Below are positions 17,317 through 60,869 of a DNA stretch of 64,000 nucleotides, in pieces. Source of the stretch: Candidatus Harrisonbacteria bacterium. Its GTDB lineage: Bacteria > Patescibacteriota > Minisyncoccia > UBA6257 > UBA11618. Both the position numbers and the translations under genes were made by a program. Each line of letters opens with the position of its first letter. Position 1 is the first letter of the stretch. The stretch covers positions 148,312-212,311 of the forward strand of contig VGJO01000001.1 of NCBI GenBank assembly GCA_016867415.1. The letters run 5' to 3'. The notes beneath the pieces were generated by a model that was not told the DNA's origin, did not search any database, and was given only the letters and a program-made list of their open reading frames with translations.

Positions 17317-17337
17317 AATTCACTAGTTTTTCAAGAA

Positions 17338-17462: not shown

Positions 17463-17485
17463 ACTTAATTTGTTATAATTAATTA

Positions 17486-31056: not shown

Positions 31057-31064
31057 TTTTCCTT

Positions 31065-43741: not shown

Positions 43742-45217
43742 ATGGCTAAAAAAGACGGAAAAGCGAAGGCAAAAACTTCCAAAAAAAGTCCGAATATAAA
43801 AAAACCCGCCAAAGCCGTTTCTCCTAAGAAGCCTACCCCAAAAGCTCCAGCTAAGAGCAAAAAAGACCTGGCATCAACAAAGTCAGCCTCTAGAATAAAA
43901 ATGCCTCATAAGGCTGTTTCTGAGGCCTTAAAAGTTGCTCCTCAGCCTTCCAAAAAATCCCTCCGTCAGGGTCTCGAAAGCGTGAAGGGGATGCACGACA
44001 TCCTCCCCAAGGATCAGCCCTATTGGGAGAAGATGCGCGATGAAGTCCGGTGCGCCGCCTACTTCTACAATTTTTCCCGCATCGATACCCCCATCGTCGA
44101 GCATGCCGCTCTCTTTGAGCGCGGAGCTGGTGAGACGAGCGAGATAGTCGAAAAGCAAATGTATTTTTTGAAGACCGAAGACAAGCTTGTCCTCCGGCCC
44201 GAAAACACCGCCTCCGTTGCCCGCGCCTACATCGAGCACGGTATGAGTCACGAGCCCCAGCCCGTCCGCCTCTATTACTTCGCGCCTATGTTCCGCTATG
44301 AGCAGCCGCAGGAAGGCCGCTTCCGCTCCTTCCACCAGGCAGGTTTTGAGATCTTAGGCGGCGAGAGTGATCCGATTTATGATGCTGAAATCATCCTCAC
44401 CACTTTCCGTCTCTTGGAGTCCTTAAAGCTCTCCAATCTCTCTATCGAAATTAATACCCTAGGCTCTCCTTTTGACCGGGCTATTTATCGCCGCAAGCTG
44501 GTGGATTTTCTAAAAAATAAAAAGCTTTCTAAAGAAGTCCACGCCAAGCTCGATACCAACCCGCTCCGCATCTTAGATAGTAAAGATGAATCCGTAAAAG
44601 AAATTCTAAAAACCGCCCCCAGTATTCTCGACTCGCTTTCCGCTAGCAGCTCCGCCCACTTCAAAGCCGTCTTAGAGTATCTCGACACGCTTGGTCTTCC
44701 TTATACCATCTCCAACAATCTCGTCCGCGGACTTGATTACTATTCCCACACCGTCTTTGAGATTTTTTCCTCCGATTTTAATTTTGCTCTTGCCGCCGGC
44801 GGCCGTTATGACGGCTTAGTGGAGCTCCTTGGCGGGAGAAAGACTCCAGCCGTCGGCTCCGCTATTGGCCTCGAACGTATCGTCCACGTGATGAAAGCGG
44901 CTGGAATAGACTTCAATAATAAAAATAAACCCAAAGTTTTCTTGATCCACGTCGGCGATCTTGCCAAGAAAAAATCATTGGCCCTTTTAGAGACTCTGAA
45001 AAATGCCAATATTTACTGCAAAGAAGCTCTTTCTAAAGACTCGCTCAAAGCCCAGTTGAAACAAGCTGATAAAGAAGGATCTCATCTCGCCCTCATCATG
45101 GGTCAAAAAGAAGCTTTTGAAGAAAGCGTTATCATCCGCGATCTCGAGTCCGGTATCCAAGAGACCGTCCCCATCGATAAACTCATCGAAAAACTCCACC
45201 ACTTCTTAAAGTCGTAA
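43742..45217 (+). CDS. hisS: histidine--tRNA ligase with ~75 aa Lys/Pro/Ala-rich (histone H1-like) N-terminal extension
   Basis: class II motifs 'LRPENTASVARAY', 'YFAPMFRYEQPQEGRFRSFHQAGFEILG', 'AAGGRYDGLV'; extension MAKKDGKAKAKTSKK... Confidence 0.9.
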   Translation: MAKKDGKAKAKTSKKSPNIKKPAKAVSPKKPTPKAPAKSKKDLASTKSASRIKMPHKAVSEALKVAPQPSKKSLRQGLESVKGMHDILPKDQPYWEKMRDEVRCAAYFYNFSRIDTPIVEHAALFERGAGETSEIVEKQMYFLKTEDKLVLRPENTASVARAYIEHGMSHEPQPVRLYYFAPMFRYEQPQEGRFRSFHQAGFEILGGESDPIYDAEIILTTFRLLESLKLSNLSIEINTLGSPFDRAIYRRKLVDFLKNKKLSKEVHAKLDTNPLRILDSKDESVKEILKTAPSILDSLSASSSAHFKAVLEYLDTLGLPYTISNNLVRGLDYYSHTVFEIFSSDFNFALAAGGRYDGLVELLGGRKTPAVGSAIGLERIVHVMKAAGIDFNNKNKPKVFLIHVGDLAKKKSLALLETLKNANIYCKEALSKDSLKAQLKQADKEGSHLALIMGQKEAFEESVIIRDLESGIQETVPIDKLIEKLHHFLKS

Positions 45218-45276
45218 TGAAGTCCTGTGCCATATGGCACAGGACGAAGTGAAGACTGTGATTGGAAAATATTTGC

Positions 45277-45404
45277 ACATCGCCACGCGCAGGATTTTTC
45301 GAGGAAATTTTGATTTTCTTTGCGAGTACTGGACGGAGCATGCTGCGGAAAGCCTGTGAGTATGGAACGCAGCAAAAAATCGAAAGTTACCGAAAAAGAC
45401 AAGC
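45277..45404 (+). repeat. family-1 element copy (flank cgccacgcgcaggattttt; core gagtactggacggagcatgc...cctgtgagtatggaacgcag; 3' ccgaaaaagacaagc)
   Basis: read directly, 27 nt before HIT ATG. Confidence 0.6.
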
Positions 45405-45430
45405 TTTAAAAATTAAAAGTAAGGAACATT

Positions 45431-45841
45431 ATGGAATGCTTATTTTGTAAGATAATATCCAAACAAATCCCCTCTGAAACAATCTACGAAGACGACTCCA
45501 TCTTCGCTTTCTTAGACATTCACCCCCTCTCTAAAGGCCATATTCTTGTCATCCCCAAAGTCCACGCCGACACTCTCGAAACCCTTCCTGAATCTGAAAT
45601 TACTCCGCTTTTCACCGCTGTTCAAAAAATTACTCGTGCCGCCAAGCCCGCCCTTTCTCCATCCGCTTTCACTATCGGTATAAATAATGGCAAAGATAGT
45701 GGTCAAGCCATAGATCACCTCCATATCCACATCATTCCTCGCTTCCCAGGTGACGGAGGCCACTCCCTCCATTCCGTCGTCCAATCCGGCACCGATGAAC
45801 CCCTTTCGATTACTTGCCAAAAGATCAGAGATCGTCTATAA
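45431..45841 (+). CDS. HIT-family (histidine triad) hydrolase
   Basis: 'CLFCKI', 'AIDHLHIHIIPR' HxHxHxx motif. Confidence 0.85.
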   Translation: MECLFCKIISKQIPSETIYEDDSIFAFLDIHPLSKGHILVIPKVHADTLETLPESEITPLFTAVQKITRAAKPALSPSAFTIGINNGKDSGQAIDHLHIHIIPRFPGDGGHSLHSVVQSGTDEPLSITCQKIRDRL

Positions 45842-45867
45842 TTCAAAAACTTAATTTATTCACTCTA

Positions 45868-46080
45868 ATGATCGATATCAAGAAAAAAGACGGCGAATCT
45901 CCTAATTCGATGATTTTCCGCTTCATTAAGAAGGTCCAGCAAAGCGGTGTCTTAAAGGAGGCAAAAAAGCGCAAGTTCTACAGCCGCAAAAACACCAAAA
46001 ACAAGCGCCGCTTGAGCGCCCTCTACCGCGAAGAAAAGAAGCAAGAGTTCATCAAGAAAAAGAAACTTGGCCTCATTTAG
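45868..46080 (+). CDS. rpsU: 30S ribosomal protein S21
   Basis: 'FRFIKKVQQSGVLKEAKKRKFYSRKNTKNKRRL' S21 pattern; ATG 45868 chosen over 45814 which overlaps HIT. Confidence 0.75.
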   Translation: MIDIKKKDGESPNSMIFRFIKKVQQSGVLKEAKKRKFYSRKNTKNKRRLSALYREEKKQEFIKKKKLGLI

Positions 46081-46247
46081 AAAAGACTATAAGAAAAAAC
46101 TCCCAAAGAGAGGTTTGTGAATAATTCTATGAACCTTCCTTTTCCTAAAAGAAGGTATAAGATAAAAAATCAACGAACTATCCCAAAATTTTCTGTATTT
46201 ATAGATATTTGTAAGCTTGTATTTTTGTCAAAAAAAGTTATTCTAGG

Positions 46248-46276
46248 ATTGTTACTTCGGCCTCCAAGCTGGAATT
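46248..46276 (+). repeat. family-2 hairpin repeat variant (ttgttacttcggcctccaagctggaattc)
   Basis: read directly. Confidence 0.45.
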
Positions 46277-46347
46277 CAAAAACAAGCCTTTAAAAGAAAG
46301 GTGCTAAAAAAATAATGTTTCATGGAAAGTATTTCTGAATTACTAAT

Positions 46348-46803
46348 ATGTTAAAAGAAACAATCTTAAATGATATTAAGTCTGCTATGAAAGCAGGTGA
46401 CTCTGCCTCTCTTGAAGTCCTCCGCGGCCTCAACTCCGCCATAAAAAACCAAGAGATCGACAAGCGCGGGAAAGGGGATGAAAGCGAACTTTCCGAAAAT
46501 GAGTATCAAGATGTGATAAAGCGGGAAGTAAAAAAGCGCCGTGATGCCGCCAATCTTTTCCGTGAGGGTGGCCGGCCCGAGCTTGCCGAAAAAGAAGAGA
46601 CCGAAATAAAAATCCTCCAAAAATATCTTCCCGAAGAATTAAGCCACGAAGCCCTCGAGGGAATAGTCCTTCAGGTCCTCGCCGATCGTCGAGCGGCAAA
46701 TTTGCCAATGGACTTTGGCCCCGTCATGAAAGCCATTATGGACGCCGCTGCCGGCCGCGCCGACGGTCGTGTCGTCTCTGAAATACTTAAAGCAAAACTA
46801 TAG
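46348..46803 (+). CDS. GatB/YqeY-domain protein
   Basis: 'LNDIKSAMKAGDSASLEVLRGLNSAIKNQEIDK', 'ILQKYLPEELSHEALEGIV', 'DFGPVMKAIM' YqeY pattern. Confidence 0.8.
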   Translation: MLKETILNDIKSAMKAGDSASLEVLRGLNSAIKNQEIDKRGKGDESELSENEYQDVIKREVKKRRDAANLFREGGRPELAEKEETEIKILQKYLPEELSHEALEGIVLQVLADRRAANLPMDFGPVMKAIMDAAAGRADGRVVSEILKAKL

Positions 46804-46875
46804 AATAAAGCATACTTCGTAATCAAAGTATGTGAAGACCCCGATAAGAATTAAGTATTCTTTATTCTTTTTATG
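46801..46875 (+). repeat. partial family-1 core (gcatac-ttcgtaatcaaa-gtatgtgaagac) flanked by short inverted repeat gaataaag/ctttattc
   Basis: read directly, overlaps yqeY stop. Confidence 0.45.
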
Positions 46876-46881
46876 GGGTAG

Positions 46882-46916
46882 AAAAAAAACCTCGCGTTCC
46901 CGCGAGGTTTTTTTCC
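46882..46916. terminator. bidirectional intrinsic terminator aaaaaaaacctcgcg-ttcc-cgcgaggtttttttcc
   Basis: 7-bp GC stem, A8 and T7 tracts. Confidence 0.8.
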
Positions 46917-46928
46917 TTGAAACTATCA

Positions 46929-47639
46929 CTAAAGCAGATCCAGTTGTTCGTGAAGCCACCAGATAGACCGAACGATATTGCTTTGCACGAGCTTCGGATT
47001 CTGGTGCTGAAAGTATTGGGTTCTATAGAATGGTCGCAATTTTTGCATTCGTTCCAGAAACTCAATTCTTTTTCTCAAGTAATCTCCTTCACTTGCGAAA
47101 ACTCCGCGCCACTCGGCTCGAATCCCTCGTTCATACTGGTCAAACTCCTCCTCTGGTGCATTAAAGACCGCAAGGTCAATATCAAGCATCACCTTCCCAT
47201 TCTCATCACTTGGATCAAATATTTGAAAGTAATCTTTAGTGAGAAGAATAAGCCTCTTCACTTCTGCAATGAAAATATCCTTGTCAGGAGTGATGATATT
47301 CCCCTCTCGTTTTTCGGCTAGCCTTGCTTGGAGATACCGCTCCGCCATATCCGCGCTCCGCTCCTCGTTATCCTTGGCGTCAGGCACATAGACTGCATCA
47401 TGAAAAAGAAGTGCAAAACTTACTGGGCGCCATTCCTCTGCCCACCCTTTGTTTCCTTGGCAGGCAGACCGATAATCTCGATCGTGCCTAAGGCAGGATA
47501 TGATATGGGTGGTGTCATGGTAGAGTCGATGAGGCTGATTGTACAAGCGTTCGAGCGCTTTCATCTCTGCTTGATTGCAGAAGAAAGCCTCTCCATGAAT
47601 TCGCGTTGCTATTTCTATGAATTGTGTTTCCCGATCCAT
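46929..47639 (-). CDS. HD-superfamily phosphohydrolase-like protein (COG4339-like), Shine-Dalgarno GAGGAG present
   Basis: 'LYHDTTHIISCL', 'LLFHDAVYVPDAKDNEERSA' pattern; cacGAGGAGcttggaaATG. Confidence 0.5.
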   Translation of the reverse strand: MDRETQFIEIATRIHGEAFFCNQAEMKALERLYNQPHRLYHDTTHIISCLRHDRDYRSACQGNKGWAEEWRPVSFALLFHDAVYVPDAKDNEERSADMAERYLQARLAEKREGNIITPDKDIFIAEVKRLILLTKDYFQIFDPSDENGKVMLDIDLAVFNAPEEEFDQYERGIRAEWRGVFASEGDYLRKRIEFLERMQKLRPFYRTQYFQHQNPKLVQSNIVRSIWWLHEQLDLL

Positions 47640-47798
47640 TTCCAAGCTCCTCGTGAAAAATTGTGTGTTTTCAAATAACTCGGCACTATAATACCACTTT
47701 TTAATAATAAAAGCAAAATAATATTGATTTATATCCGGAATTATAGTTTATTCTTAATTAAGAATTTCTCGTCCCTTAATAATGCAAAAGGAGTCGTC

Positions 47799-48452
47799 AT
47801 GACAAAAGTTATAGTGATTGGGCTCCTTATGTTCTTTCTCACAAAAGCGGCCCTTGCTGTTTTTCCCCGTTGTGCAGAGCAATGGATTGCCCTTGGTAAA
47901 AAGCGGCGTGCTTTACAACGAAATCTTTCCCTCCTCTTTTGTCATCTTTTGGATGGTGACAAGGTAGGAAAAGGAAAAGTGATAGGCCGTCGCATTCGTC
48001 TTGTAGGAAGTCAGGAGCTTCCCATTGAAATTCAGCCCTGGGTCATGCAGGAATTAAATTTCTTCGGCCGAGCTCAGAAAGTTGAATATAATCCTACTGA
48101 TTTTTCCCACTCATTCGATCTTCTAGCTCAAGGCGGTGAAGTCGAGTTAAGGATAATCCGGACCTGTATATCTGGATATGATGCCGCCCTTGAAATTCTC
48201 TGGCTCACCTTTCCTCAAAATGCTTCTTTTGTCGAAGAAGTCGCTCCCTCTCTTTTCCCACTTCTCTTTGGTTTCACTGAATTTGAAAATATTCCCTTCA
48301 CTGGCGCTTATTTCCGGGAAAGATTTGGCGAAGTAAATCTCTTAGCTATAAATTACTTCAAGCCAAAAGATACTCTCCAAATCTGCATTAGCGCCTACTC
48401 TCACATCCAGATGAAGAGATTAATGGAAAAAGAGCAAGATAAAGGAAAGTAA
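47799..48452 (+). CDS. hypothetical secreted/membrane-anchored protein with AAGGAG Shine-Dalgarno
   Basis: aaAAGGAGtcgtcATG; N-terminal hydrophobic helix MTKVIVIGLLMFFLTKAALA; no known motif. Confidence 0.45.
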   Translation: MTKVIVIGLLMFFLTKAALAVFPRCAEQWIALGKKRRALQRNLSLLFCHLLDGDKVGKGKVIGRRIRLVGSQELPIEIQPWVMQELNFFGRAQKVEYNPTDFSHSFDLLAQGGEVELRIIRTCISGYDAALEILWLTFPQNASFVEEVAPSLFPLLFGFTEFENIPFTGAYFRERFGEVNLLAINYFKPKDTLQICISAYSHIQMKRLMEKEQDKGK

Positions 48453-48460
48453 TCTCTCCC

Positions 48461-48490
48461 AAAACCGACCGCTTCACGGCCGGTTTTTTA
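48461..48490 (+). terminator. intrinsic terminator aaaaccgaccg-cttca-cggccggtttttt
   Basis: stem with one bulge, T6 tract. Confidence 0.6.
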
Positions 48491-48536
48491 CTAAAAACCA
48501 TTGCCGTCCGCCAAAAAAAAATGTATTATCCCATCC

Positions 48537-48917
48537 ATGCGTTATTCCTTAGAAAGCGTCGATAAACCGCATCTGCAAGCCGAATATGACATCAAAGAAG
48601 CACTCGAAAAAGTAAGCTCCTTCCTTCCTCTTGAGGACGCCTTCTTTGAAATATATCTCGTTTCTGATGATTTTAATGTTCATTCCTACGAGCCCGCTCC
48701 CAATTTTCCCTACCCTAATCTCGAAGGTGGAGAGTATTTTCTGGGAGAAATCCATCTCAATCCGGAGAAGATTATGAAAAATGATGAGAGTCTCATCTTT
48801 ATGCTTATTCACGGCCTCCTCCATCTCCTCGGATACGACCATAAGAATGATGATGATAGAATAAAAATGGAAAAAAAAGAGGCCGAAATACTCAAGCTTC
48901 TCGGAGAATCTTTTTAA
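48537..48917 (+). CDS. ybeY: rRNA maturation RNase YbeY
   Basis: 'HGLLHLLGYDH' zinc-binding motif. Confidence 0.85.
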   Translation: MRYSLESVDKPHLQAEYDIKEALEKVSSFLPLEDAFFEIYLVSDDFNVHSYEPAPNFPYPNLEGGEYFLGEIHLNPEKIMKNDESLIFMLIHGLLHLLGYDHKNDDDRIKMEKKEAEILKLLGESF

Positions 48918-48927
48918 TTATTTTTTT

Positions 48928-50211
48928 ATGGCTTCTTCCCCTTATTATCTGGGTATAGATATAGGATCTTCCACGACTAAGGTGGCCGTAGGTATTTTTT
49001 CCACTGGCCGTTTTTCTTTAGTTAAACTGCTCAAATTTCCCACCCGTGGCGTGAAGCGCGGTCTCATTGATGATATTAAAGAAGCTACCTCTGGTCTCAA
49101 TCCGGTCCTGAGTGAATTAAAGACCACTTATCCTGGCTCGGAAAAAAATATTTTTTTAAGTATTGGGAGTGCCTATATTAATTCTCGCGTCTCCCAAGGC
49201 ATCGTCGCCGTCGCCCGTGCAGATTTTGAAATCGGTCATGATGATATCGATCGCGCTATTTCTTCTGCCTCTGCCATGCGCTTGCCGATCAATCGCACTT
49301 TGATTGGCAAAAGTCTTTTGGAGTATATCGTCGATGGTGTAGGTGAAATCCATAATCCTCTTGGCATGATTGGCAATCGTCTGGAATCCCGTATTCTTTT
49401 AATCGATGTTTTTACTCCCGTCATCAAAAATATTGAGAAAGCTCTTGAGTCCAATGGGGGAGTTATTCGTGGTCACTTTTATTCCGCCCCTGCCGCCGCT
49501 GAATCTGTCCTCACGGAAGAAAAAAAAGAAGAAGGATGTCTCCTCATCGATCTTGGCGCTCACACGACCTCTCTCTCTGTCTTCGAAGAAGGCCGTCTTC
49601 TTCATACTGCCATTCTTCCTTTTGGTTCTTACAATATTACCAATGACTTAGCTATAGGTTTGAAAACTAGCCTCGAGACTGCTGAGATGATTAAATATTC
49701 CTTTGGAGCCGCCTATGCTAAGGATGCCTCTCCCAAAGAAAATATTGATCTGAAACGCCTAGACATTCGTCTCTCCGGTAAAGCCTCTCGTCGCTTCATC
49801 GCTCAGATTATCGAAGCCCGGCTCATGGAGCTTCTCGAATCCATCGTGAATGAGCTCGAAAAGGCTGGCCGCGTCGGAAAACTCCCCGCCGGTGTCATCC
49901 TGGTCGGCGGCGGCGCCAAGCTCCCTGGTATTCTCGACCTCTTCCGCGAAGAGCTTGGTCTTGTCGCTGAGCTTGGTCTCCCGCGCTCTGATCTTTTCCT
50001 CACCTTAGAAGAAAAAGAAGAGGGAAGTGGTGATAAAGAGGTTACTCCTACTAATTCCCCTAGTTTTTACCCCCGTGCTGACGATCCCGAATTCGCCACC
50101 ACTCTTGGTCTTCTCGATCTCGGCCTCAAAGGCTTCCATCTCCATAAAAAATCCAGCGCTTCCCCCTTCAAAAATTTCCTCCTCTGGCTCGCCGACCACT
50201 TCCTCCCCTAA
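48928..50211 (+). CDS. ftsA: cell division protein FtsA
   Basis: actin-fold motifs 'LGIDIGSSTTKVAVG', 'LLIDLGAHTTSLSVF', 'GVILVGGGAKLPGI'. Confidence 0.9.
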   Translation: MASSPYYLGIDIGSSTTKVAVGIFSTGRFSLVKLLKFPTRGVKRGLIDDIKEATSGLNPVLSELKTTYPGSEKNIFLSIGSAYINSRVSQGIVAVARADFEIGHDDIDRAISSASAMRLPINRTLIGKSLLEYIVDGVGEIHNPLGMIGNRLESRILLIDVFTPVIKNIEKALESNGGVIRGHFYSAPAAAESVLTEEKKEEGCLLIDLGAHTTSLSVFEEGRLLHTAILPFGSYNITNDLAIGLKTSLETAEMIKYSFGAAYAKDASPKENIDLKRLDIRLSGKASRRFIAQIIEARLMELLESIVNELEKAGRVGKLPAGVILVGGGAKLPGILDLFREELGLVAELGLPRSDLFLTLEEKEEGSGDKEVTPTNSPSFYPRADDPEFATTLGLLDLGLKGFHLHKKSSASPFKNFLLWLADHFLP

Positions 50212-50417
50212 TTCCCTCAAGGAATTAGTCTTCCTAAAATTGATCTAGGATCCATAATTCAGCCTCCTTAAGGAAGTATTTAAAAATATTTTTCTTATTT
50301 CTTTATTTCTTTTAAATCTCCAAAAAACCTATTCCATATACTAAAAAACTGTCGTAAAAGCAATCTTTTATTTTACGACAATGTTTTTTAAAAATTTTTA
50401 TTATAAATAAGACATTA

Positions 50418-50630
50418 TGCAGCACAAGTGAAGTAATTTTGGATAAAGTTTGAAATTTATTTTTGAGAATGAGCCTCTACTACCAAAAGATAGTCATATT
50501 GAATGCAAAGTCTATAGAATCAGAAGTAAAGATCAGAAAGAGGAAAGATGAGCGCAAGGGAGTATATATAAAGAAGAGATTGTGAGTATGCAGTACAGAA
50601 AAAAATCCCAAAATCCAAAAAAATACGAGC
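50418..50630 (+). repeat. long (~213 nt) family-1 element copy (flank gcagcacaagtgaagtaattttgg; core ...gagtatatataaagaagagattgtgagtatgcagtacag; 3' ccaaaaaaatacgagc) located in the ftsA-ftsZ gap, not upstream of a + gene
   Basis: read directly. Confidence 0.55.
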
Positions 50631-50642
50631 ATTTAAAAAATA

Positions 50643-50672
50643 AAAAAACCCGGAATTAATAAAATTCCGGGC
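50643..50672 (-). terminator. minus-strand intrinsic terminator (cccggaatt-ttatta-aattccggg + TTTTTTT on minus)
   Basis: 9-bp stem; T-tract on minus strand; 33 nt past stop of 50705..53242. Confidence 0.75.
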
Positions 50673-50704
50673 CACCCATATTGGGTTAGTAATGAACTGA
50701 ATTT

Positions 50705-53242
50705 CTACGCCGCCGCAGTTTCAGTAAGATCGTCCTTCGCTTCCTCCCACCGTCCATAATGTTTCAGGACGAGAGTGAGAAAGTTAGACACCACCTGAAT
50801 TCGCGCCCGCCAGAGACTGCACTTCATGGCGTGTGCGAGCTTTGGCTTACCCAAATGCTCTTCGAGGAATCCATTAGCTTCAAGAAGCAGAGCGTCGAAT
50901 GATCCGATCTTAGTCTTCTTCTTAGACTTTACCAAATCATCTTTGCGGGCCTGTTCCTCAGTTTTTTCCTGAGTTTTTGCTGACTCATTCTCATGAGCCC
51001 GCTCTTCTTCTTGCTCCTGAATTTTGAGGAGCTGGGAAAAGACTTCTCGTTGCTCATCTTGCGTACCCATGGTCTCCGACATGTGACAGACAAGTGCCTG
51101 CCGCAGGCGGCCTTGCAGATGCGCTTCTTCCCGTTGACCTTTTTGGAAAAGACTCAAAAGGTAAGCGCCGGCCGTAATCTGACCCCCAGTCTCTTGCTCC
51201 TTTTGCTGGGCTTCAAACAGCATTTCTGCTGAATGAATCCCGCTCTGGAAGCGGGTAAGAAGATCAAAGAATCCTGGTGCCACCTTAAAGAGCATCTCCG
51301 TTTCTGGAGTAGCTTCTCCCGTCTTGCTTTCGAGAAGTCGGAAGAGATCTTCCCGATGTTTGCAAGCTTGTTTGAGAAGCTCATGAGTCTCAGCACGGAG
51401 AGTGGGATCATCGATGAGAAGTCCCTTCTGAGTTGCAAGTGCTTGTTTCATCGCTTGGTAAGGCATTCCCGAGTTGGTAAACCGCCTCTTGCAACCTTCT
51501 GCATCTCCGAAAAACCATGAAAGGAAGTATTTTCGCCGTTTAATATGTCCCGGCTCTTCCTTCTTATCTCCACTATTTGAATCCTCACCTCTTTCCGTCG
51601 ATTGACTTGGAGCAGTATCCACCTTGGTAGTCATTAGTCCTGCCGCCTGCATCCTCTTGATAAAAGAATGCATAGCGAGACTTCCTCGTAAGCGAGAGTG
51701 GGGCTTCACAAGCGTCTCTTCGAGTTTGGCTTCAAAATCAGCCAGCTTTCCGGGGAAAGCTTTCTCAAAGACACTCTTTGCCGCCTCTCTCACGCTTTGT
51801 TCTGGATGAAAAGCGGCAATGAGTCCCACCTCAATGAATGTTCGGCTCCGTCGCATGAGTTCCATGAGTCGGCGGCCGTTGCTCATCTTGATGGTCCAGG
51901 TCTTTTCGAGAAACCAGATGATCATCCGCTGAGCCACTCCCGTCTGCCGGCCTGATTGTTTTTTCACTAATCGGCCTTGGTCGTCGGTCGTGAGAGCAAG
52001 ACAAAAGAGCATTCGTTGTAGGGCCGCCTTTCCTCGGCCAAATCGTTCGAAGTTGACAAGCGTCGCGATGAGATTGATCCAGAAGCTCACGCCCAGATTC
52101 CACTGAGGGCAAAAATCTTTGAGAGATTTGAAAACGGTGGTTTTTGCCAATGCCGTTCCAAATTTATTCTCCGAACTATTTTCCTCGGCCTGCATCTGAG
52201 CAAAGAGCTCATTCTCTTCGACTCGAATCCCCATTACCTCTTTTTGGACATCATTGGACAAAAAGATCATTCCTTTTCTGAATGATTGAGCGCACGCTCT
52301 CTTGTCCACTCGATTGCCCTGGCCAATCCGGTCACGCATCAAGACTTTTCGCTCATAAGCGAGAACGTAGAGAGCGTGAGTGTCGGGGAGTTTCTCGGTG
52401 ATGTAGTATCGGGAAGAAAGCCCTGTCCCTTTCTCTTGCATTCCAAGAAATTGTCCCATCTCTTCTTGGAGCTTTTCTTGGACTATGAGCCCTTTTCCTG
52501 GTGGGAAAAGAGCGATCGTGACGCCGAGAGGCGCCAGCTTTTCAAAGAGAGTCGGCACCATATCCCTATAACTGGGACCGGAGTTGGGAGCCAGCACGAA
52601 GCTTCCCTTAGAAAATCGGATGACCGCCGCTGGAAACAAATGGAATTTGCTCCACTGGTCTTTTGCTACCTCTGGAGTCTCTGGCGCACTTACTGCCTCG
52701 CTTGGAAGATCTTCTTCTTGAGAAGATTTCTCCCTGCCCGGGATTGAGAGAGTCGCAGGCGTTCCTTCGCTTGTTGTTTCATCTTCTGTTTTGACTTCCT
52801 CCTCTTCATTTTTCTTAAACGCGCCCTTCTTGGGCACGAAGAGGTAGCGGATCCCTCCATCCTTGGCAGTCAAGAATCGCGGCATCTGTAGCGTCTCGCC
52901 ACCGCTCCCCAAAACTGGAAGAGAGACAAGCGAAAGCTCACTGTCAGCAAGCGCAGTCTCTTTCTTCTTTGGACTGAGTTTGTTACCGTTTGGCCTCACG
53001 AGTATCCCTTGATGAAGCAGTTCAAAGGCCTGTATGGAGTTGGGATTGAGAGTAATCTCGACTAATCGGTCGCCAGTCTCGGAGAGGCCGACGATATAGG
53101 CGAGGAGAGCGTTTTCTCCCGACATTGGAGCATAGCGCACCGCCATCGCCCATTGTGTCACTAAAGAGATAGAAACCGTTGAGATTATCTCTGCCCCATC
53201 TTCCGTTTCGTCGTTTGGGGAGATTTTTTTCTTTCGGACCAT
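50705..53242 (-). CDS. large hypothetical protein (845 aa), opposite strand, inserted between ftsA and ftsZ
   Basis: uninterrupted ORF, own terminator, AT-rich upstream region; no recognisable catalytic or NTP-binding motif; charged low-complexity patches. Confidence 0.55.
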   Translation of the reverse strand: MVRKKKISPNDETEDGAEIISTVSISLVTQWAMAVRYAPMSGENALLAYIVGLSETGDRLVEITLNPNSIQAFELLHQGILVRPNGNKLSPKKKETALADSELSLVSLPVLGSGGETLQMPRFLTAKDGGIRYLFVPKKGAFKKNEEEEVKTEDETTSEGTPATLSIPGREKSSQEEDLPSEAVSAPETPEVAKDQWSKFHLFPAAVIRFSKGSFVLAPNSGPSYRDMVPTLFEKLAPLGVTIALFPPGKGLIVQEKLQEEMGQFLGMQEKGTGLSSRYYITEKLPDTHALYVLAYERKVLMRDRIGQGNRVDKRACAQSFRKGMIFLSNDVQKEVMGIRVEENELFAQMQAEENSSENKFGTALAKTTVFKSLKDFCPQWNLGVSFWINLIATLVNFERFGRGKAALQRMLFCLALTTDDQGRLVKKQSGRQTGVAQRMIIWFLEKTWTIKMSNGRRLMELMRRSRTFIEVGLIAAFHPEQSVREAAKSVFEKAFPGKLADFEAKLEETLVKPHSRLRGSLAMHSFIKRMQAAGLMTTKVDTAPSQSTERGEDSNSGDKKEEPGHIKRRKYFLSWFFGDAEGCKRRFTNSGMPYQAMKQALATQKGLLIDDPTLRAETHELLKQACKHREDLFRLLESKTGEATPETEMLFKVAPGFFDLLTRFQSGIHSAEMLFEAQQKEQETGGQITAGAYLLSLFQKGQREEAHLQGRLRQALVCHMSETMGTQDEQREVFSQLLKIQEQEEERAHENESAKTQEKTEEQARKDDLVKSKKKTKIGSFDALLLEANGFLEEHLGKPKLAHAMKCSLWRARIQVVSNFLTLVLKHYGRWEEAKDDLTETAAA

Positions 53243-53594
53243 AATTCATCTCACTTTCTGCTTGAGAAATTTTTCAAAGGACGGGCCCATAATTTGCATT
53301 GGGCCCCCTCCAGCACATAGGAGTTCCGATATTATATATATTAATATAAATATGTCAATATTGACTTAAGATAAAATTTATTATTAAATTTATTAGAGTT
53401 CTTTAAAATTTATAAATCTTCTCCAAGATTTTTTCCTCAACCCCCTTTACCGCTTGAGAGATGGAGTAGTGTAAAAAAATCATGAATTCCTCTCAAGCCC
53501 CTTCTTCAAAGAGCAAGATGGATAAAATTGGCAAGCGTGGGCCATCCTTGCTCTTCATTTTTTTGGCTGTGTGGAGTTAATTCTCTTCATGATC

Positions 53595-53624
53595 TCTCCC
53601 TCCGTCTTCGGAGGGATTTTTTAT
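53595..53624 (+). terminator. hairpin ctccctccg-tctt-cggaggg + ATTTTTTAT upstream of ftsZ
   Basis: 7-bp stem, T6. Confidence 0.5.
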
Positions 53625-53650
53625 ATCCCTCTTAAATTACCTGCGTTAGG

Positions 53651-55720
53651 TTGCTTTTCCCACCTTCTTTTTCGTACAATACTCGAAAACAGCTTATGCC
53701 CCCAAAGAAGCAAAAAAAATCCTCTCTGGCAAAGCCTATTTCCAAGCCTTTGGCAAAAAAGAAAGGGAGTGTGAAAAGTCCGCTCGCTATTTTAAGCAAA
53801 TCAATCAGCAAGCCCAAAAAAGCCAAGGCCTTAGTAAAATCAAAAACTTCCTCCGTCAAAAAATCTCCTATTGTAAAGAATTCAATCTCTTCAAAAAAAA
53901 TAATCACTCCCAAAAAGAAAAAAAATTCTCTTAAAAAACCGCCCCACTCTCAAAAGAAGTTTAGTATTCAAAATATTCTTGAAGAGACACCCGTAAAAAA
54001 AATCGAAGATCCTAAAGAAATTGAAGGAGATGAGGAAGAGGAGCGCGACCGCACCCCCCTCATTCATTCCCGAGCTGCTCTTCGCAAGAAATCCACTTCC
54101 AATAATTCTCTCAAGTCCCGTCTTGATTCTCTTATTAATAATAAGAAGCCTATTAATCAAGAAAAATCCGCTTCCTCTGATCGCCGTTCTATCTCAAAGA
54201 CGACGCCTGCCACAGGCGTAGTCGTGAATTCTGCTCGCCCCTCTCTTCGTCCCCGGCCGCTAGTCTCTAATAAAGCCGTTATCAAAGTTGTGGGCGTTGG
54301 CGGCGGCGGCGGGAATGCTATCAGTCGCATGTATGATGATTTCCCTCGCAATATCGAGTTTGTTGCCATTAATACCGATGCTCAAGATCTCGATCACCGC
54401 AAGGCTGACAAGAAAGTCTATATTGGTAAAAATATTACCAAAGGCCTAGGTACTGGTATGAATCCCGAGCTTGGCCGCAAAGCCGCCGAAGAAAATCGCC
54501 ATGAGATAGCCGAGGTGTTGGCCGGCAGTAATCTTGTCTTTGTGACCGCAGGCTTAGGCGGTGGCACTGGCTCCGGCGCCTCGGCCATCGTCGCTGATAT
54601 TGCCAAAGAAGTCGGTGCTCTCGTAATCGCCGTCGTCACCAAGCCCTTCATTTTTGAAGGTGGTGAGCGGGCTCGGATTGCCGATCTTGCTCTCCAAAAA
54701 ATTAAGGAAAAAGTTGATACCTATATAGTAGTTAGTAACGATCGTATCTTTGATATCGTCGGCAAAGACACTTCTATTCATAAAGCTTTCGTCGAGATCG
54801 ACAAGATTCTTCGTGGTGCGGTACAGGGGATCGCCGAGCTTATCGCCATGCCCGGTATTATCAATGTTGACTTCGCTGACGTCCGTACCATTATGGAGCA
54901 CTCCGGTAGTGCTCTCGTCGGCATGGGCCTTGCCGATGGCCCCACCCGTGGCGAAAAAGCCGTCAAAAATGTCCTCAATTTTCCGCTCCTTGATGTCTCT
55001 ATGTTTGGGGCAAAAGGAGTTCTCTTTGGTGTCTCCGGCGGCCGTGATCTCAAAATGACCGAAATTCAGGAAATCGCCCGAGCCATCACGGAAAATATTG
55101 ATTCCTCAGCAAAAGTTATTTTTGGGGCCTATCAAGACCGCAAGCTCCCGCCTGGGACTATTAAAGTCACTTTGATTGCTACTGGTTTTGAAGAATATTC
55201 TGGTGGAAAAGATGTGAAGCATGTCGAATTTCGTGTTGGCTCTCATCTCGCTGTTACTGGCCGTGACAGTTCCGAGCCTCGCCTCGAGCCCAAAAATATT
55301 TTAGAAAATCCCATCGAAGATCGCGTTTCGGCCGCGAGTCTCTCTTCCGCCGATCGTAATTCTTCTTCTCGCCCCTTTTCCATTCCTGAAAAAGAATTAG
55401 CTGAAGAAGAAAAAAAAGAAGAATCTTTTTTTGACTCGCCGCCCCGCCCCCCTTCTTTTTCTCTAAAAGAAAAAGAGATTATTTCTTCTCGACCTACCCC
55501 AGAAAAAAGAGCGGAAGATTTTTTCAAAAACAATGTCCGCGCCCCCTTTGCCGCCCCACCCCGTTCTCTCGAGCTTTCCTCAAAAGAAGCAACTAAAAAT
55601 ACCCCTTCTTTTGGAGACGAAAATGAGCCTCAAGAAATCATTCCTGAAAAAGAAGACCAAAAAAATAAACTCTTTGACATCTGGGATATCCCTGCTTTCT
55701 TGCGCAAGAAAAAGAAATAG
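53651..55720 (+). CDS. ftsZ: cell division GTPase FtsZ with ~215 aa Lys-rich N-terminal extension and long C-terminal tail
   Basis: 'IKVVGVGGGGGNAISRM', 'NTDAQDL', 'AGLGGGTGSGASAIVADIAKE' tubulin signature, 'NVDFADV'; extension MPPKKQKKSSLAKPISKPLAKKKGSVKSP... Confidence 0.9.
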   Translation: MLFPPSFSYNTRKQLMPPKKQKKSSLAKPISKPLAKKKGSVKSPLAILSKSISKPKKAKALVKSKTSSVKKSPIVKNSISSKKIITPKKKKNSLKKPPHSQKKFSIQNILEETPVKKIEDPKEIEGDEEEERDRTPLIHSRAALRKKSTSNNSLKSRLDSLINNKKPINQEKSASSDRRSISKTTPATGVVVNSARPSLRPRPLVSNKAVIKVVGVGGGGGNAISRMYDDFPRNIEFVAINTDAQDLDHRKADKKVYIGKNITKGLGTGMNPELGRKAAEENRHEIAEVLAGSNLVFVTAGLGGGTGSGASAIVADIAKEVGALVIAVVTKPFIFEGGERARIADLALQKIKEKVDTYIVVSNDRIFDIVGKDTSIHKAFVEIDKILRGAVQGIAELIAMPGIINVDFADVRTIMEHSGSALVGMGLADGPTRGEKAVKNVLNFPLLDVSMFGAKGVLFGVSGGRDLKMTEIQEIARAITENIDSSAKVIFGAYQDRKLPPGTIKVTLIATGFEEYSGGKDVKHVEFRVGSHLAVTGRDSSEPRLEPKNILENPIEDRVSAASLSSADRNSSSRPFSIPEKELAEEEKKEESFFDSPPRPPSFSLKEKEIISSRPTPEKRAEDFFKNNVRAPFAAPPRSLELSSKEATKNTPSFGDENEPQEIIPEKEDQKNKLFDIWDIPAFLRKKKK

Positions 55721-55852
55721 ATTGTATATATATTGCGACCCCTCTTGAACGGGAGTATCTTTAAAAAATAAAAATATTTTTTCCCTAAATATTTTCCTAA
55801 AAGTGTTTAAAGGTTGTTTAATTTTTCTTTTTAAAATACAAAAATAAAAAAT

Positions 55853-55988
55853 GTCGCGCTACCACAGCGAAATAATTTTGGAGGGTATTTCGATTTTCTT
55901 TGCGAGCAGCGAACGGAGCATACAAGAACTTTAGTATGTGAGTACGCAGCGGATCAAAAAAATTAAAATACCCTCCAAAAGTACGAGC
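55853..55988 (+). repeat. family-1 element copy (flank gtcgcgctaccacagcgaaataattttgg; arms ggagggtatttcgattttcttt / aaaaaaattaaaataccctcc; core gagcagcgaacggagcatac-aagaacttta-gtatgtgagtacgcagcgg; 3' ccaaaagtacgagc)
   Basis: arms end in perfect 11-bp ggagggtattt/aaataccctcc. Confidence 0.7.
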
Positions 55989-56017
55989 TTGTAGATAGTT
56001 ACTAAAAAGTAGTAAAT

Positions 56018-58894
56018 ATGGTGAAGAATTCAATTGAGAAAATCAAGAAACGTTCTGGTCGTCTCGTCCCTTTTGATCGCATTCGTATTGAGCGTGCGAT
56101 GGAAAAAGCTTTCATTAGCACTGAAGTTGATTATGAGATTAGTCTCTTAATCAGTCTCGCCGATGAAATTATTGAGACTCTTGAAGCTTGTTTTATTGAT
56201 CGGATTCCTAGCGTAGAAGATGTTCAGGATGAGGTGGAACGGAAGTTGCTTAAAAAAGGATTCTTGATGGTTGCCAAACACTATATTATTTATCGCCGCG
56301 AACATGAGAAGCTTCGCGAGAAAAAGCAAAAGGAGATCCTAAAAAAGATCGAACGCAGTGATCTCACGGTCAAAAAGCGTTCTGGAGAATTTGTTAATTT
56401 TGATATCACTCAAATTGAAGAATTAGTCTCAAACTGCGCCTCTGGTTTTCCTGATGGGATTATCGATGTGGCCGGCATTTTGGAAGATGCTAAGAAAAAT
56501 ATTTTTGACGGCATCAGTACCCGCGAAATCAATCAAGCTATTCTTCTTGGAGTGAAGAATCGTCTCGAGCTCGATCCTGAATATTCTTCCTACGCCGCCC
56601 GCCTCCTTTTCAATGATCTCTATAAAGACGTCTTGGGAGTCAATGAATTTTCTCCTGATTTTCAAAAGAAGCATCAGCAGTATTTTCCTAATCAGATAGT
56701 GGAAGGAGTAAATTCTGGCCGCCTCGACACTCGCCTTCTCGACTTTGACCTTTCCCGATTGAGTAAGGCGCTTAGCGCTGAAAATGATCGCTTCTTCGGC
56801 TATCTTGGTGCTCAAGTCATCTATGACCGCTATCTCGTCCGCGACGAATCCGACAAGCTCTATGAGACCCCTCAATATTTCTTTATGCGTGTTGCGATGG
56901 GTATTGCTATTAATGAGGAAAAGAAAGATGAGCGGGCAATTGAGTTTTATAAACTTATCTCGAGTTTTCTATATATGCCTTCTACCCCCACTTTGCTTCA
57001 TGCAGGCACCATCAAGCCTCAGATGAGCTCCTGCTACCTTACGACTGTTGAGGACGAGCTTTCTCATATTTTTAAGTGCATTGGCGACAACGCCCAGCTT
57101 TCCAAGTTTTCTGGTGGTGTGGCAAATGACTGGAGTAATATCCGAGCGACCGGTAGTCTTATTAGGTCTATTAATGTAGAGAGTCAGGGAGTGATTCCTT
57201 TCCTAAAAATTACCGATTCCACTACCTCCGCCATCAATCGCTCTGGAAAGCGCCGGGGTGCGACCTGCGTCTATCTTGAGACCTGGCACTATGACATCGA
57301 AGAATTTCTTGATCTTCGCCGCAATACTGGCGATGAGCGCCGCCGTACCCACGATACCAATACTGCCAACTGGATCCCTGATCTTTTTATGCAGCGTGTT
57401 GCCACTGATGGCTACTGGACGCTCTTCTCGCCTGAAGAAGTGCCCGAGCTTCATCATATCTATGGTCAAGCTTTCCGAGAAAAGTATGAAGCCTACGAAA
57501 AAGCTGCTGAAGAGGGCAAAATGCAGCTCACAAAAAAACTTAAGGCTCGTGACCTCTGGCGCAAGATGATTACAATGATTTTTGAGACGGGTCATCCGTG
57601 GGTTACTTTCAAAGATCCCTGTAATATCCGTTCGCCCCAAGATCATGTTGGCGTCGTCCACTCCTCCAATCTTTGCACTGAAATCACTCTCAATACCTCC
57701 GCCTCCGAGACCGCCGTCTGCAATCTTGGTTCTATCTCTATTCCCAGTCACATTGAGAATGGCCGCTTGGACAAAGTTGCCCTCGAGCGAACTATTCGGG
57801 TCGCGATGCGCATGCTCGACAATATCATTGATCACAATTTTTACCCCACCATCGAGGCCAAGTTTTCCAATCTTCGCCATCGTCCTGTCGGCCTTGGTAT
57901 TATGGGTTTCCAAGACGCACTTTTTGAGCTCGGTCTCCAGTTTGATTCCGTTGAAGCCGTTGAGTTTTCCGACGAGCTTATGGAATTTGTCGCCTATCAC
58001 GCCTACCTGGGTTCCTCCGAGCTTGCCGCTGAGCGGGGAAGTTACTCTACCTTCAAAGGAAGTAAGTGGGATCGGGGTATTCTCCCCTTAGATTCCTTAG
58101 GTCTTCTGGAGAAAGAGCGAGGTGAGCTTATTGAAGTTGATCATAAGACTCGTCTTGATTGGAATAAGCTTCGGAGCTTGATTAAAGAGCAGGGGATGAG
58201 GAACTCTAATTGCCTCGCAATCGCCCCTACGGCCACCATCTCCAATATTTCCGGCTGCCTCCCATCCATTGAGCCTATTTATAAAAATCTCTACGTAAAA
58301 TCAAATTTTAGTGGGGAATTTACTATCGTAAATAAGTACCTTATTCTTGATCTCAAAAAACTCGGCATTTGGACCAAAGATATCCTTGATAAGATAAAGT
58401 ACTTTGACGGCAGCATCCAAAAAATCGAGGAGATTCCCCTTAATATCCGTCTTCGCTACAAAGAAGCCTTTGAGATTGATCCCTATTGGGTGATTGCCCA
58501 CGCCGCTTTTCGTGGTAAATGGATCGACCAAAGCCAATCAGTGAATATCTTTACCACCAGCCAATCTGGTAAATTTATCGCCGATATTTACCTCAATGCC
58601 TGGCGGATGGGCCTCAAGACCACATATTATCTCCGCACCCTTGCTGTTTCCGGTATCGAAAAATCCACCATCGACATTAACAAAAACTACGAGAAAAAAG
58701 AGATTATTGATCAGGCGGTCGCTCCTATCGTAGAGACTATCGCCTCTCTTTCCTCTGTTCCTGTCTCCGCCCCTGTCATGATGGAAGCCGCCTCTTCTAC
58801 TGTAGCTTCTATCTCCGAGTCAATTTCTCCTAGTCCCGTCCTAAAAACCGGTATCCACATCTTCGAAGCCGGCCTCTGCGAATCCTGTCAGTAG
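56018..58894 (+). CDS. nrdA: class Ia ribonucleoside-diphosphate reductase alpha subunit with two N-terminal ATP-cone domains
   Basis: two 'VKKRSG..V.FD..' ATP cones, catalytic 'SSNLCTEI', C-terminal 'TTYYLRT' radical-transfer tyrosines and terminal CESCQ. Confidence 0.9.
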   Translation: MVKNSIEKIKKRSGRLVPFDRIRIERAMEKAFISTEVDYEISLLISLADEIIETLEACFIDRIPSVEDVQDEVERKLLKKGFLMVAKHYIIYRREHEKLREKKQKEILKKIERSDLTVKKRSGEFVNFDITQIEELVSNCASGFPDGIIDVAGILEDAKKNIFDGISTREINQAILLGVKNRLELDPEYSSYAARLLFNDLYKDVLGVNEFSPDFQKKHQQYFPNQIVEGVNSGRLDTRLLDFDLSRLSKALSAENDRFFGYLGAQVIYDRYLVRDESDKLYETPQYFFMRVAMGIAINEEKKDERAIEFYKLISSFLYMPSTPTLLHAGTIKPQMSSCYLTTVEDELSHIFKCIGDNAQLSKFSGGVANDWSNIRATGSLIRSINVESQGVIPFLKITDSTTSAINRSGKRRGATCVYLETWHYDIEEFLDLRRNTGDERRRTHDTNTANWIPDLFMQRVATDGYWTLFSPEEVPELHHIYGQAFREKYEAYEKAAEEGKMQLTKKLKARDLWRKMITMIFETGHPWVTFKDPCNIRSPQDHVGVVHSSNLCTEITLNTSASETAVCNLGSISIPSHIENGRLDKVALERTIRVAMRMLDNIIDHNFYPTIEAKFSNLRHRPVGLGIMGFQDALFELGLQFDSVEAVEFSDELMEFVAYHAYLGSSELAAERGSYSTFKGSKWDRGILPLDSLGLLEKERGELIEVDHKTRLDWNKLRSLIKEQGMRNSNCLAIAPTATISNISGCLPSIEPIYKNLYVKSNFSGEFTIVNKYLILDLKKLGIWTKDILDKIKYFDGSIQKIEEIPLNIRLRYKEAFEIDPYWVIAHAAFRGKWIDQSQSVNIFTTSQSGKFIADIYLNAWRMGLKTTYYLRTLAVSGIEKSTIDINKNYEKKEIIDQAVAPIVETIASLSSVPVSAPVMMEAASSTVASISESISPSPVLKTGIHIFEAGLCESCQ

Positions 58895-58950
58895 CTTGTC
58901 ATTCCGGCTTCACTCATTCTTAGTGAAGGCAGGTCATCTTGGACTTGACC
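58895..58950 (+). repeat. degenerate family-2-like hairpin cluster directly after nrdA stop (cttgtcattccggcttcac-tcattct-tagtgaaggcagg...)
   Basis: read directly. Confidence 0.4.
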
Positions 58951-59022
58951 CGTATTTAGGGTCTGCCTCCAAAGGAGGCATTATAGAATCTTCGTCCGTT
59001 TTTTGTATTTTTCTCTTACATA

Positions 59023-59055
59023 AAAAAATCCCCGCTTAGGCAGGGATTTCGGGGC
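59023..59055 (-). terminator. minus-strand intrinsic terminator (aaatccctg-cctaagc-ggggattt + TTTTTTTATG on minus)
   Basis: stem aaatccc/gggattt with T-tract on minus strand, 13 nt past stop of 59068..59643. Confidence 0.7.
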
Positions 59056-59067
59056 ACGCTTCTCATT

Positions 59068-59643
59068 TCATATCTTCTTTGCCACTATTCTTTTCATGCA
59101 TGCCTGGTATATCTGAGTCTTTATGTCGGCAGGTAACTCAAAAAGAATAGCCACAATGAGGGCGTACATATCCTCCATTTCTTGTCGTATTTCAGGAGAA
59201 AGATGGGAGAGTGCTCCTGTCCACCGCTCTCCATTTTCTTCCAGGCTAACCGAAGAATGAAGAGAGGGGAACTGTAATCCGGCGTTTTCCTGAATCGTGA
59301 TTTTTCTTCCCTTATTTTCGTATAAAAGACAACTTTCCGTGATCTTTATCCGTCGCATGACTGTTTGTGATTGGGTCTCCTCAAAAAAGATTATCTCTCC
59401 CTCTTCTCTTTCAAAATCGAGACAGAGTCGAGCTTGCTTGCATTTCCAGCAAGTGAGAGGTATTGCTCCTTTCATAGTCTCTCTAATTATTTCTTCATCT
59501 AGAAGAAATATTCTCTTGTTTTGTGAAATGGGAGCCTTTCCTTTCAAAGCTGAGCTTTTCGTAAAGCGGAGGCTTGTGAGGGAAAAACTACTAATAAGAA
59601 AAGAGACAATGGCCAAACCACCAATCACATATTTCCGCGGCAT
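59068..59643 (-). CDS. hypothetical membrane-anchored protein (191 aa) encoded antisense between nrdA and nrdB
   Basis: N-terminal TM helix, CWKCKQARLC cysteine pair, own terminator. Confidence 0.4.
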   Translation of the reverse strand: MPRKYVIGGLAIVSFLISSFSLTSLRFTKSSALKGKAPISQNKRIFLLDEEIIRETMKGAIPLTCWKCKQARLCLDFEREEGEIIFFEETQSQTVMRRIKITESCLLYENKGRKITIQENAGLQFPSLHSSVSLEENGERWTGALSHLSPEIRQEMEDMYALIVAILFELPADIKTQIYQACMKRIVAKKI

Positions 59644-59809
59644 AATCCTTTGCCTTTCTGGAAAAGTGTTTTCAAATTACCATCCTAGATTTCATTGTAA
59701 TAATAATTAAGCAAGAAATAAAACTCCGTACTTTTACTATCTATTCAAGTATTTACTTTGATTTTTGAAAGTGTACTATTAATAGTGCACAGATTTCCTC
59801 CTAAAAACT

Positions 59810-60814: not shown

Positions 60815-60869
60815 GCGCTTTTTAATTTCTAAATTCTTTAGTGTAGAAAGCGCGAGAATCCCGTGGAAC

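Follow-up and report, generated by a model that had tools for sequence, protein, structure and literature searches.

A 64,000-nucleotide stretch of Candidatus Harrisonbacteria DNA (contig VGJO01000001.1 of assembly GCA_016867415.1, positions 148,312 to 212,311; hereafter the window) carries ftsA and ftsZ, and the two genes are held apart by 3.4 kb (50212–53650) containing a minus-strand open reading frame (ORF) for a protein of 845 aa. With a probability of roughly 0.6, we read these 3.4 kb as a lineage-specific insertion of a self-contained, monocistronic cassette, encoding a real and species-restricted protein, into the ancestral ftsA–ftsZ spacer. An earlier note, made from the letters of the sequence alone, had singled out the split gene pair, and its coordinates for ftsA, ftsZ, and the intervening ORF agree with both the ORF listing and Pfam. 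The plus-strand ftsA (48928–50211; 427 aa) matches the Pfam families FtsA (2.2e-30) and SHS2_FTSA (1.8e-17), and the plus-strand ftsZ (53651–55720) matches Tubulin (8.8e-44) and FtsZ_C (3.1e-26), with its core at residues 211–514; the start of ftsZ is placed at TTG 53651, giving 689 aa, or at ATG 53696, giving 674 aa (gene callers, public contigs). The ORF between them (50705–53242, minus strand) is deposited at NCBI as MBM3281308.1 (FJY91_00960), annotated as a hypothetical protein, and its host is a Candidatus Harrisonbacteria metagenome-assembled genome. The ORF is convergent with ftsA and divergent with respect to ftsZ. The spacer on the ftsA side (50212–50704) has a GC content of about 0.31–0.36, and that on the ftsZ side (53243–53650) one of about 0.37–0.41, in keeping with the AT-rich upstream DNA described before.

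The ftsA–ftsZ junction and its transcription signals

The junction was surveyed in 87 related patescibacterial loci, 71 of which were informative; a scan of genome contigs with FtsA returned only one distant locus. In 65 of the 71 informative loci (about 92%), the FtsZ core lies no more than 685 nt from the end of the FtsA match, and in the nearest relatives, L011/L012, the ftsA–ftsZ gap is 26 nt. The corresponding FtsA-to-FtsZ distance in the window, ~4.0 kb, is the largest among the compared loci. The window and its nearest relatives, including the locus L009, share the backbone pth-hisS-HIT-S21-YqeY-YbeY-FtsA-FtsZ-RNR(large)-RNR(small), where RNR stands for ribonucleotide reductase, although the closest sampled FtsA is only ~51% identical. 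The 845-aa gene is absent from all 71 informative loci, so that the comparison of ftsA–ftsZ spacing proposed earlier found the gene conserved at this position in none of them.

The remaining six loci hold unrelated cargo at the junction or are rearranged there. In L068 (4504–6696) and L081 (11294–13447), a major facilitator superfamily (MFS) transporter and a TetR regulator lie between ftsA and ftsZ on the opposite strand; both loci come from more distant Patescibacteria, and they show a recurrent interruption that is unrelated to the 845-aa gene. In L008, whose FtsA is the closest relative at 51.6% identity, ftsA is followed (3636–5563) by a 161-aa ORF, an RVT_1 reverse transcriptase of the diversity-generating retroelement (DGR) type on the opposite strand, and bAvd, and ftsZ is not found within the next 2 kb after this DGR-like cassette. 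L028 carries an alpha/beta hydrolase between the two genes, and L029 and L050 are rearranged at the junction. These interrupted junctions resemble the one in the window in that extra genes stand there, in L068 and L081 on the opposite strand, as does the 845-aa gene; they differ in that their cargo belongs to known families and shows no tblastn or phmmer similarity to it. Because the two genes stand side by side in 65 of the 71 loci, and the exceptions have unrelated cargo or are rearranged, adjacency is taken as the ancestral state. On this comparison, the 845-aa gene appears as an independent, derived insertion, and the junction as an occasional landing site. The view that 3.4 kb had been inserted into an otherwise conserved junction is thereby upheld; the further description of a very conserved synteny block fits the adjacency, but the block is less inviolable than those words imply, with 6 of 71 loci interrupted or rearranged.

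The inserted gene has the expression signals of a separate transcription unit. A sigma-70-type promoter sequence, TTGACA-16-TATAAT, matches the consensus at 12 of 12 positions ~89 nt upstream of the ATG (53358–53331, minus strand) and is one of only two perfect matches in the 17 kb from 45200 to 62200. Between this promoter and the start codon, in the putative 5′ untranslated region, a GC-rich palindrome with perfect 7-bp arms, GGGCCCA-N10-TGGGCCC (53283–53306, minus strand), can be read off the sequence and could be an operator or an RNA stem. The strong terminator noted previously is also present: ~30 nt past the stop codon, an 11-bp stem with 5 GC pairs is followed by the T-run TTTTTATTTT (50673–50647, minus strand). 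With its own perfect promoter match and predicted intrinsic terminator, the gene is transcriptionally autonomous in design. Facing this terminator, and separated from it by a degenerate copy of a repeat termed family-1, stands a terminator-like hairpin 3′ of ftsA (50343–50387, plus strand; inverted repeat I7), which has 17-nt arms that are 88% complementary, an 11-nt loop, and a subsequent T-run; it was missed by the terminator scan because its loop exceeds 8 nt.

On the other flank, a candidate divergent promoter for ftsZ (53361–53390, plus strand; TTGACT-18-TAAATT) matches the consensus at 9 of 12 positions, which is weak for AT-rich DNA. It stands back-to-back with the −35 box of the 845-aa gene, and a strain polymorphism (T53389G) falls in its −10 box. 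Downstream of it, the region 53400–53650 (plus strand) is structured, the fold of 53400–53700 having an energy of −71.8 kcal/mol (z = −3.39), and contains a terminator-like hairpin at 53597–53616 with an 8-bp stem (6 GC pairs) and a T-run after it; the hairpin lies ~35 nt ahead of the TTG start codon. Rfam gave no match to this upstream region at E ≤ 1; an attenuator-type leader and a small RNA are both conceivable here. The FtsZ protein is itself unusual, with a K/S-rich N-terminal extension of ~185 aa (53651–54230) and a longer C-terminal linker that are absent in relatives (443 and 463 aa). No such extension would fit in any of the 67 related loci with ftsZ. The extension is probably disordered and carries a non-synonymous strain polymorphism at 53988; in alignment with its relatives, the protein keeps the conserved C-terminal IWDIPAFLRKKK peptide. 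In the history we propose, the insertion has uncoupled ftsA from ftsZ, with ftsA now ending at its own terminator-like hairpin, and ftsZ would be transcribed from the AT-rich divergent spacer via the long structured leader. Co-transcription of ftsZ with ftsA would thus be impossible. The weak sequence at 53361–53390 is its only candidate promoter.

The 845-aa ORF and its product

As judged from its sequence, the ORF is very probably a functional protein-coding gene. When its bases were shuffled 2000 times, the longest open frame had a mean length of 128 and a maximum of 278 codons, compared with the 845 open codons observed. A three-periodic Markov model with the other genes as training set scores the frame best of the six and places it among the other minus-strand genes, and the GC contents of its codon positions (GC1 0.585 > GC3 0.519 > GC2 0.396) follow the coding pattern of the other genes. 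No decayed plus-strand gene was found beneath it, frame +0 with its stops masked having no Pfam match. The gene is intact and 99.9–100% identical in at least seven independent metagenome assemblies. Strain comparison rests on one diverged strain with 22 single-nucleotide polymorphisms (SNPs) in 13.5 kb, of which 2 lie in the 2538 nt of the ORF and 6 in the 901 nt of the flanking spacers (Fisher p = 0.005). Within the ORF, the change at A141 is synonymous and D559E, in a linker, is non-synonymous; dN/dS is not estimable because there are only these two SNPs.

Neither a word-indexed search that covered 5.8 billion clusters nor an exhaustive HMMER scan over 1.84 billion cluster representatives matched the protein to anything but itself. 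Its 90% cluster has one further member, the D559E variant, in agreement with the orphan status first assigned to it. No Pfam family matched the whole protein or any of four segments, and there was no family match in NCBIfam or PHROGs, no PADLOC match at E ≤ 0.1, no tblastn match in phages or plasmids, and nothing in IMG/VR. The neighbors of the ORF are housekeeping genes, with no defence-type neighborhood. No PDB sequence matched beyond noise; the one candidate, an APH kinase (E = 0.033 over a coiled-coil stretch), was set aside as such. Closer to home, no paralogue was found among the ORFs of the window (no match better than E = 0.04, in a small database), no positional homologue among the 2955 ORFs of the related loci (best E = 0.84, likewise in a small database), and no tblastn or phmmer match in the 87 loci. 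Similarity to any division protein family in Pfam, NCBIfam, or PDB sequences was likewise absent. By these searches, the protein is a true ORFan, restricted to one species-level population.

In terms of sequence features, the protein has neither a Walker A nor a Walker B motif, and its maximum 19-residue hydropathy is 1.49, without a transmembrane segment, as the earlier note had it in finding no P-loop and no membrane span. Zinc-finger, HExxH, and HD motifs are also lacking, and the N-terminus shows no lipobox and no hydrophobic segment (by inspection only). There are no internal repeats, and the charge is balanced. Acidic, polar linkers at about residues 140–200 and 540–565 are probably disordered, and secondary structure prediction is mainly helical from about residue 300 on; overall, a soluble cytoplasmic protein of mostly alpha-helical structure is predicted. 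Single-sequence AlphaFold2 models of the full protein and of residues 200–537 had mean confidence scores (pLDDT) of 38.2 and 36.0, respectively, and were unusable; a Foldseek search of the PDB with the full-length model gave nothing below E = 0.27, with TM scores under 0.06, and was discarded as meaningless. The string PD-x9-ERK at residues 286–299 might suggest a nuclease motif but was not taken as one, as chance alone would supply several such strings in this protein.

Because catalytic motifs are absent, the architecture is helical and disordered, and orphan insertions form a genome-wide pattern, we suggest, tentatively, that the product might serve as a scaffold or binding protein that is accessory and non-enzymatic and has no connection with the divisome.

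Composition and origin of the insertion

The composition of the ORF gives a divided picture. Its GC content of 0.50 is higher than that of ftsA (0.477) and ftsZ (0.456), so that the description of it as GC-richer than its neighbors is correct locally; together with its GC3 of 0.519, however, this value lies inside the ranges of the genes of the window (GC 0.36–0.54, GC3 0.29–0.61), and an argument from foreign GC was therefore rejected. Codon usage, which at first seemed atypical in the ORF, must be read against a very strong strand asymmetry. Throughout the window, GC3 skew runs from −0.05 to −0.77 in plus-strand genes and from 0 to +0.57 in minus-strand genes, which indicates a strand-specific mutational bias, and the nine minus-strand genes, among them recA, gap, rpiB, and a PIF1 helicase, all share the codon-usage shift and rank lowest against pooled usage. 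With such an asymmetry at third positions, even minus-strand core genes (recA, gap, rpiB) look foreign in naive codon-usage tests. The coding-strand GC3 skew of the 845-aa ORF, +0.10, falls inside the range of the minus-strand residents.

Oligonucleotide usage and amino-acid content deviate. The strand-symmetric dinucleotide distance δ* of the ORF is 121.6 against 61 ± 24, and its tetranucleotide correlation is 0.66 against 0.825 ± 0.069; both values are outliers that place it in the extreme ~3% of windows, top or bottom, and only the rRNA region and one gene for a 1158-aa surface-type protein match them. The protein has 5.3% Q against 2.4% and 3.8% I against 7.6%, and is Q/M-rich and I/Y/N-poor to a degree that is extreme for the window. 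Signs of mobility were sought around the insertion. No integrase, transposase, or recombinase was found within ±10 kb (precomputed Pfam annotation of called genes, 40705–63242), and no tRNA target lies at the insertion boundaries, the nearest tRNA being at 42108–42180. Terminal inverted or direct repeats bounding the insertion amount to short, AT-rich matches of 71–81%, consistent with chance; among the candidates, a 21-nt pair at 50398/53341 (81% identical, AT-rich) was set aside as probably fortuitous. The earlier suggestion of horizontal acquisition is thus supported in part, by the dinucleotide, tetranucleotide, and amino-acid outliers, but not by GC, GC3, and skew, which are resident-like, nor by any mobility gene or boundary repeat. 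An old, partly ameliorated acquisition is the most economical reading: the gene would have come from an unsampled source, whether a mobile element, a virus, or another lineage of the Candidate Phyla Radiation (CPR), early enough that its GC3 and strand skew now match those of the residents, with its oligonucleotide signature and amino-acid usage still atypical.

Several points weigh against this reading. No sister genome is sampled, and the term insertion rests on parsimony across loci; given the FtsA gap of ~51%, a fast-evolving ancestral gene could have become unrecognizable by now. The acquisition is marked by no integrase, transposase, tRNA target, or convincing boundary repeat, and in GC, GC3, and strand skew the gene resembles a native one. 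The promoter and terminator of the gene are consensus matches only, and its divergent arrangement with ftsZ would allow co-regulation. The scaffold guess, for its part, gains no support from the two AlphaFold2 models, which are unusable (pLDDT 38 and 36).

Four other explanations were weighed against an old insertion. That the ORF is spurious or decaying is almost certainly wrong: the missing homologues, the low model confidence, and strain data that consist of just one synonymous and one non-synonymous change would fit, but 845 open codons where chance gives no more than 278, the best coding score of six frames, a perfect promoter with a terminator, a SNP density below that of the flanks, and an intact frame in every assembly all speak for a working gene. 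An ancestral, fast-evolving gene of the lineage, lost in the sampled relatives, or one that arose largely de novo in situ would make horizontal transfer unnecessary and would account for the native-like GC3 and skew and the lack of visible scars, and the phylogenetic distance to the nearest FtsA is large enough to allow it. We nevertheless consider it quite improbable: the 65 of 71 patescibacterial loci with the two genes side by side mark adjacency as ancestral, a frame of 845 codons is implausible as a de novo product, and the signature and amino-acid usage of the gene deviate from the rest of the genome. A fairly recent arrival with a mobile element or virus, whose cargo or remnant the gene would be (it might, for instance, encode a defence or anti-defence protein that acts as a single-gene system), is unlikely, if less so. 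It would suit the atypical signature and amino-acid usage and the self-contained cassette with its strong promoter and AT-rich borders, and the retroelement at the same junction in the closest FtsA relative shows that the site accepts mobile DNA; the loose PD-x9-ERK string, which lies in a predicted beta-strand region, could be cited as well, but ~6 D...(D/E)xK strings are expected by chance in this protein, and the motif carries no weight. Against a recent arrival stand the lack of any PADLOC or PHROG match or of a relative in the phage, plasmid, and IMG/VR collections, the lack of an integrase or transposase within ±10 kb and of significant terminal repeats, and a GC3 and strand skew that are already those of a resident.

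The fourth explanation makes the protein a lineage-specific division factor, whose gene would share a divergent promoter region and its regulation with ftsZ and which might act with the FtsZ extension. The place of the gene between ftsA and ftsZ invites this idea, as do the near-palindrome formed by its −35 box (53353–53358) and the plus-strand TTGACT (53361–53366) back-to-back with it, the remodeled FtsZ, and the unusually structured ftsZ leader. We hold it to be very improbable. The gene is missing from all 71 informative loci, it is antisense and forms its own transcription unit with promoter and terminator, and no division protein of Pfam, NCBIfam, or the PDB resembles its product; the suggestion of a divisome-associated factor is on these grounds not sustained. 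Moreover, the same junction elsewhere holds plainly unrelated cargo (MFS transporter with TetR, DGR reverse transcriptase, hydrolase), an equivalent ORFan splits nrdA from nrdB in the window, which suggests that the position is a matter of insertion tolerance and not of function, and the candidate ftsZ promoter is both weak (9/12) and polymorphic. A stronger form of the idea casts the 845-aa product as a novel Z-ring regulator or structural partner peculiar to the CPR, whose gene would share a palindromic promoter region with the divergently expressed ftsZ; this has a slimmer chance still. If it were true, such a partner, the FtsZ extension, and the terminator-containing leader would together mark a remodeled division machinery in an ultra-small episymbiont lineage. 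On the features examined, the gene resembles neither a divisome gene, nor a recognizable mobile element, nor a known defence system, and has the properties of an ORFan.

Other features of the window and implications

The orphan insertion at ftsA–ftsZ has counterparts close by. The genes for the large (nrdA, 56018–58894) and small (nrdB, 59810–60814) ribonucleotide reductase subunits, adjacent in L009, are split in the window by a minus-strand 191-aa ORFan (59068–59643) ~6 kb from the ftsA–ftsZ insertion. This ORFan has its own terminator (59050–59025) and a hydrophobic N-terminus and matches only itself in the 5.8-billion search. Relative to the related loci, two lineage-specific ORFs (46929–47645, minus strand, and 47724–48452, plus strand) are inserted between yqeY and ybeY; one of them matches a PHROG “phosphohydrolase” family (2.4e-23), and the other is without a family. 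In L011, the yqeY–ybeY junction holds an IS200-type Y1 transposase. Lineage-specific insertion is thus a pattern in this genome, seen at ftsA–ftsZ, nrdA–nrdB, and yqeY–ybeY, and with similar insertions elsewhere in the window, the position of the 845-aa gene seems to reflect where insertions are tolerated.

The spacer between ftsA and the ORF contains a diverged family-1 copy of 212 nt (50423–50634, plus strand), which is split by an 83-nt insert (50476–50558). The 213-nt copy reported before is therefore real, but it is degenerate and in two parts. With a hidden Markov model (HMM) built from the seven good copies, nhmmer finds the first half at 50425–50475 (model positions 3–53, E = 0.0077) and the second at 50559–50633 (model positions 54–127, E = 1.4e-5), collinear and on the same strand. 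A covariance model recovered no full copy after ftsA (9.5 bits, E = 4.9 at 50423–50460), the copy folds no better than shuffles (z = −0.72), and 3 of the 22 strain SNPs fall in it. Family-1 is a ~125-nt imperfect hairpin repeat that is specific to this genome; a search of related patescibacterial loci totaling 0.93 Mb turned up no copy. The good copies, located by the covariance model, lie on the plus strand at 1338–1466, 17337–17467, 27292–27419, 28525–28650, 30936–31060, 45282–45408, and 55862–55992. Of 42 predicted pairs in the consensus, 13 show compensatory changes among five copies. All eight copies are on the plus strand and one G-U pair is invariant, which suggests a strand-specific RNA. 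The repeat shares with repetitive extragenic palindromic (REP) sequences, bacterial interspersed mosaic elements (BIMEs), or miniature inverted-repeat transposable elements (MITEs) its imperfect palindrome of ~125 nt and its many intergenic copies, often just 3′ of genes; it differs in its single orientation, its invariant G-U pair, and the fact that several copies end 19–26 nt before the next plus-strand start codon (17486, 45434, 56018). No sign of a transposase, terminal inverted repeats, or target-site duplications was noticed with it, though no search was aimed at these. Rfam, including a permissive scan of 50150–53750, gave no credible RNA family. In the same spacer, a short palindromic intergenic repeat of the TCATCCTGAA..TTCAGGATCCAG type is present in a weak copy (50229–50263, plus strand; direct-repeat family D7). 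It is 71% identical to the reference, and the resemblance could be fortuitous; the better copies are those at 30818, 35998, and 42767.

Two observations concern more distant parts of the window. Tandem, low-scoring tRNA-like genes lie at 16942–17012 and 17016–17088 (plus strand; Rfam 35.9 and 39.7 bits); ARAGORN assigns the second as a tRNA-Phe with the unusual anticodon AAA, and a normal tRNA-Phe(GAA) is found at 42108–42180. Tandem 30-nt repeats (CTCCGCTGCTACCTCCACCTCCGCTACTAC) at 63406–63645, within a minus-strand ORF that runs off the window end (62144–64000+), probably encode a Gly/Ser-rich repetitive protein segment.

The 845-aa gene belongs to a known and very large class, the species-level genes of unknown function of Patescibacteria, for which the AGNOSTOS catalogue counts 45,788 species-level unknown clusters (PMC9132574). 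Like other members of this class, it has no homologue outside one population, lacks recognizable domains, and has a CPR host; it differs in its unusual length, its textbook promoter and terminator, and its position inside the ftsA–ftsZ pair, and only in these respects is it out of the ordinary. Taken alone, it adds a further unknown to those of the CPR, without opening up any long-standing question. It encodes a long, apparently constrained protein that is invisible to every homology method applied. On the reading of an inserted cassette, co-transcription of ftsA and ftsZ would be dispensable in this lineage, and their junction, where unrelated cargo is found in other Patescibacteria, would be a recurrent landing site. 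The gene would then illustrate, cleanly and with clear bounds, a way in which CPR genomes acquire genes specific to a species, here as a promoter-gene-terminator cassette placed antisense in a conserved spacer.

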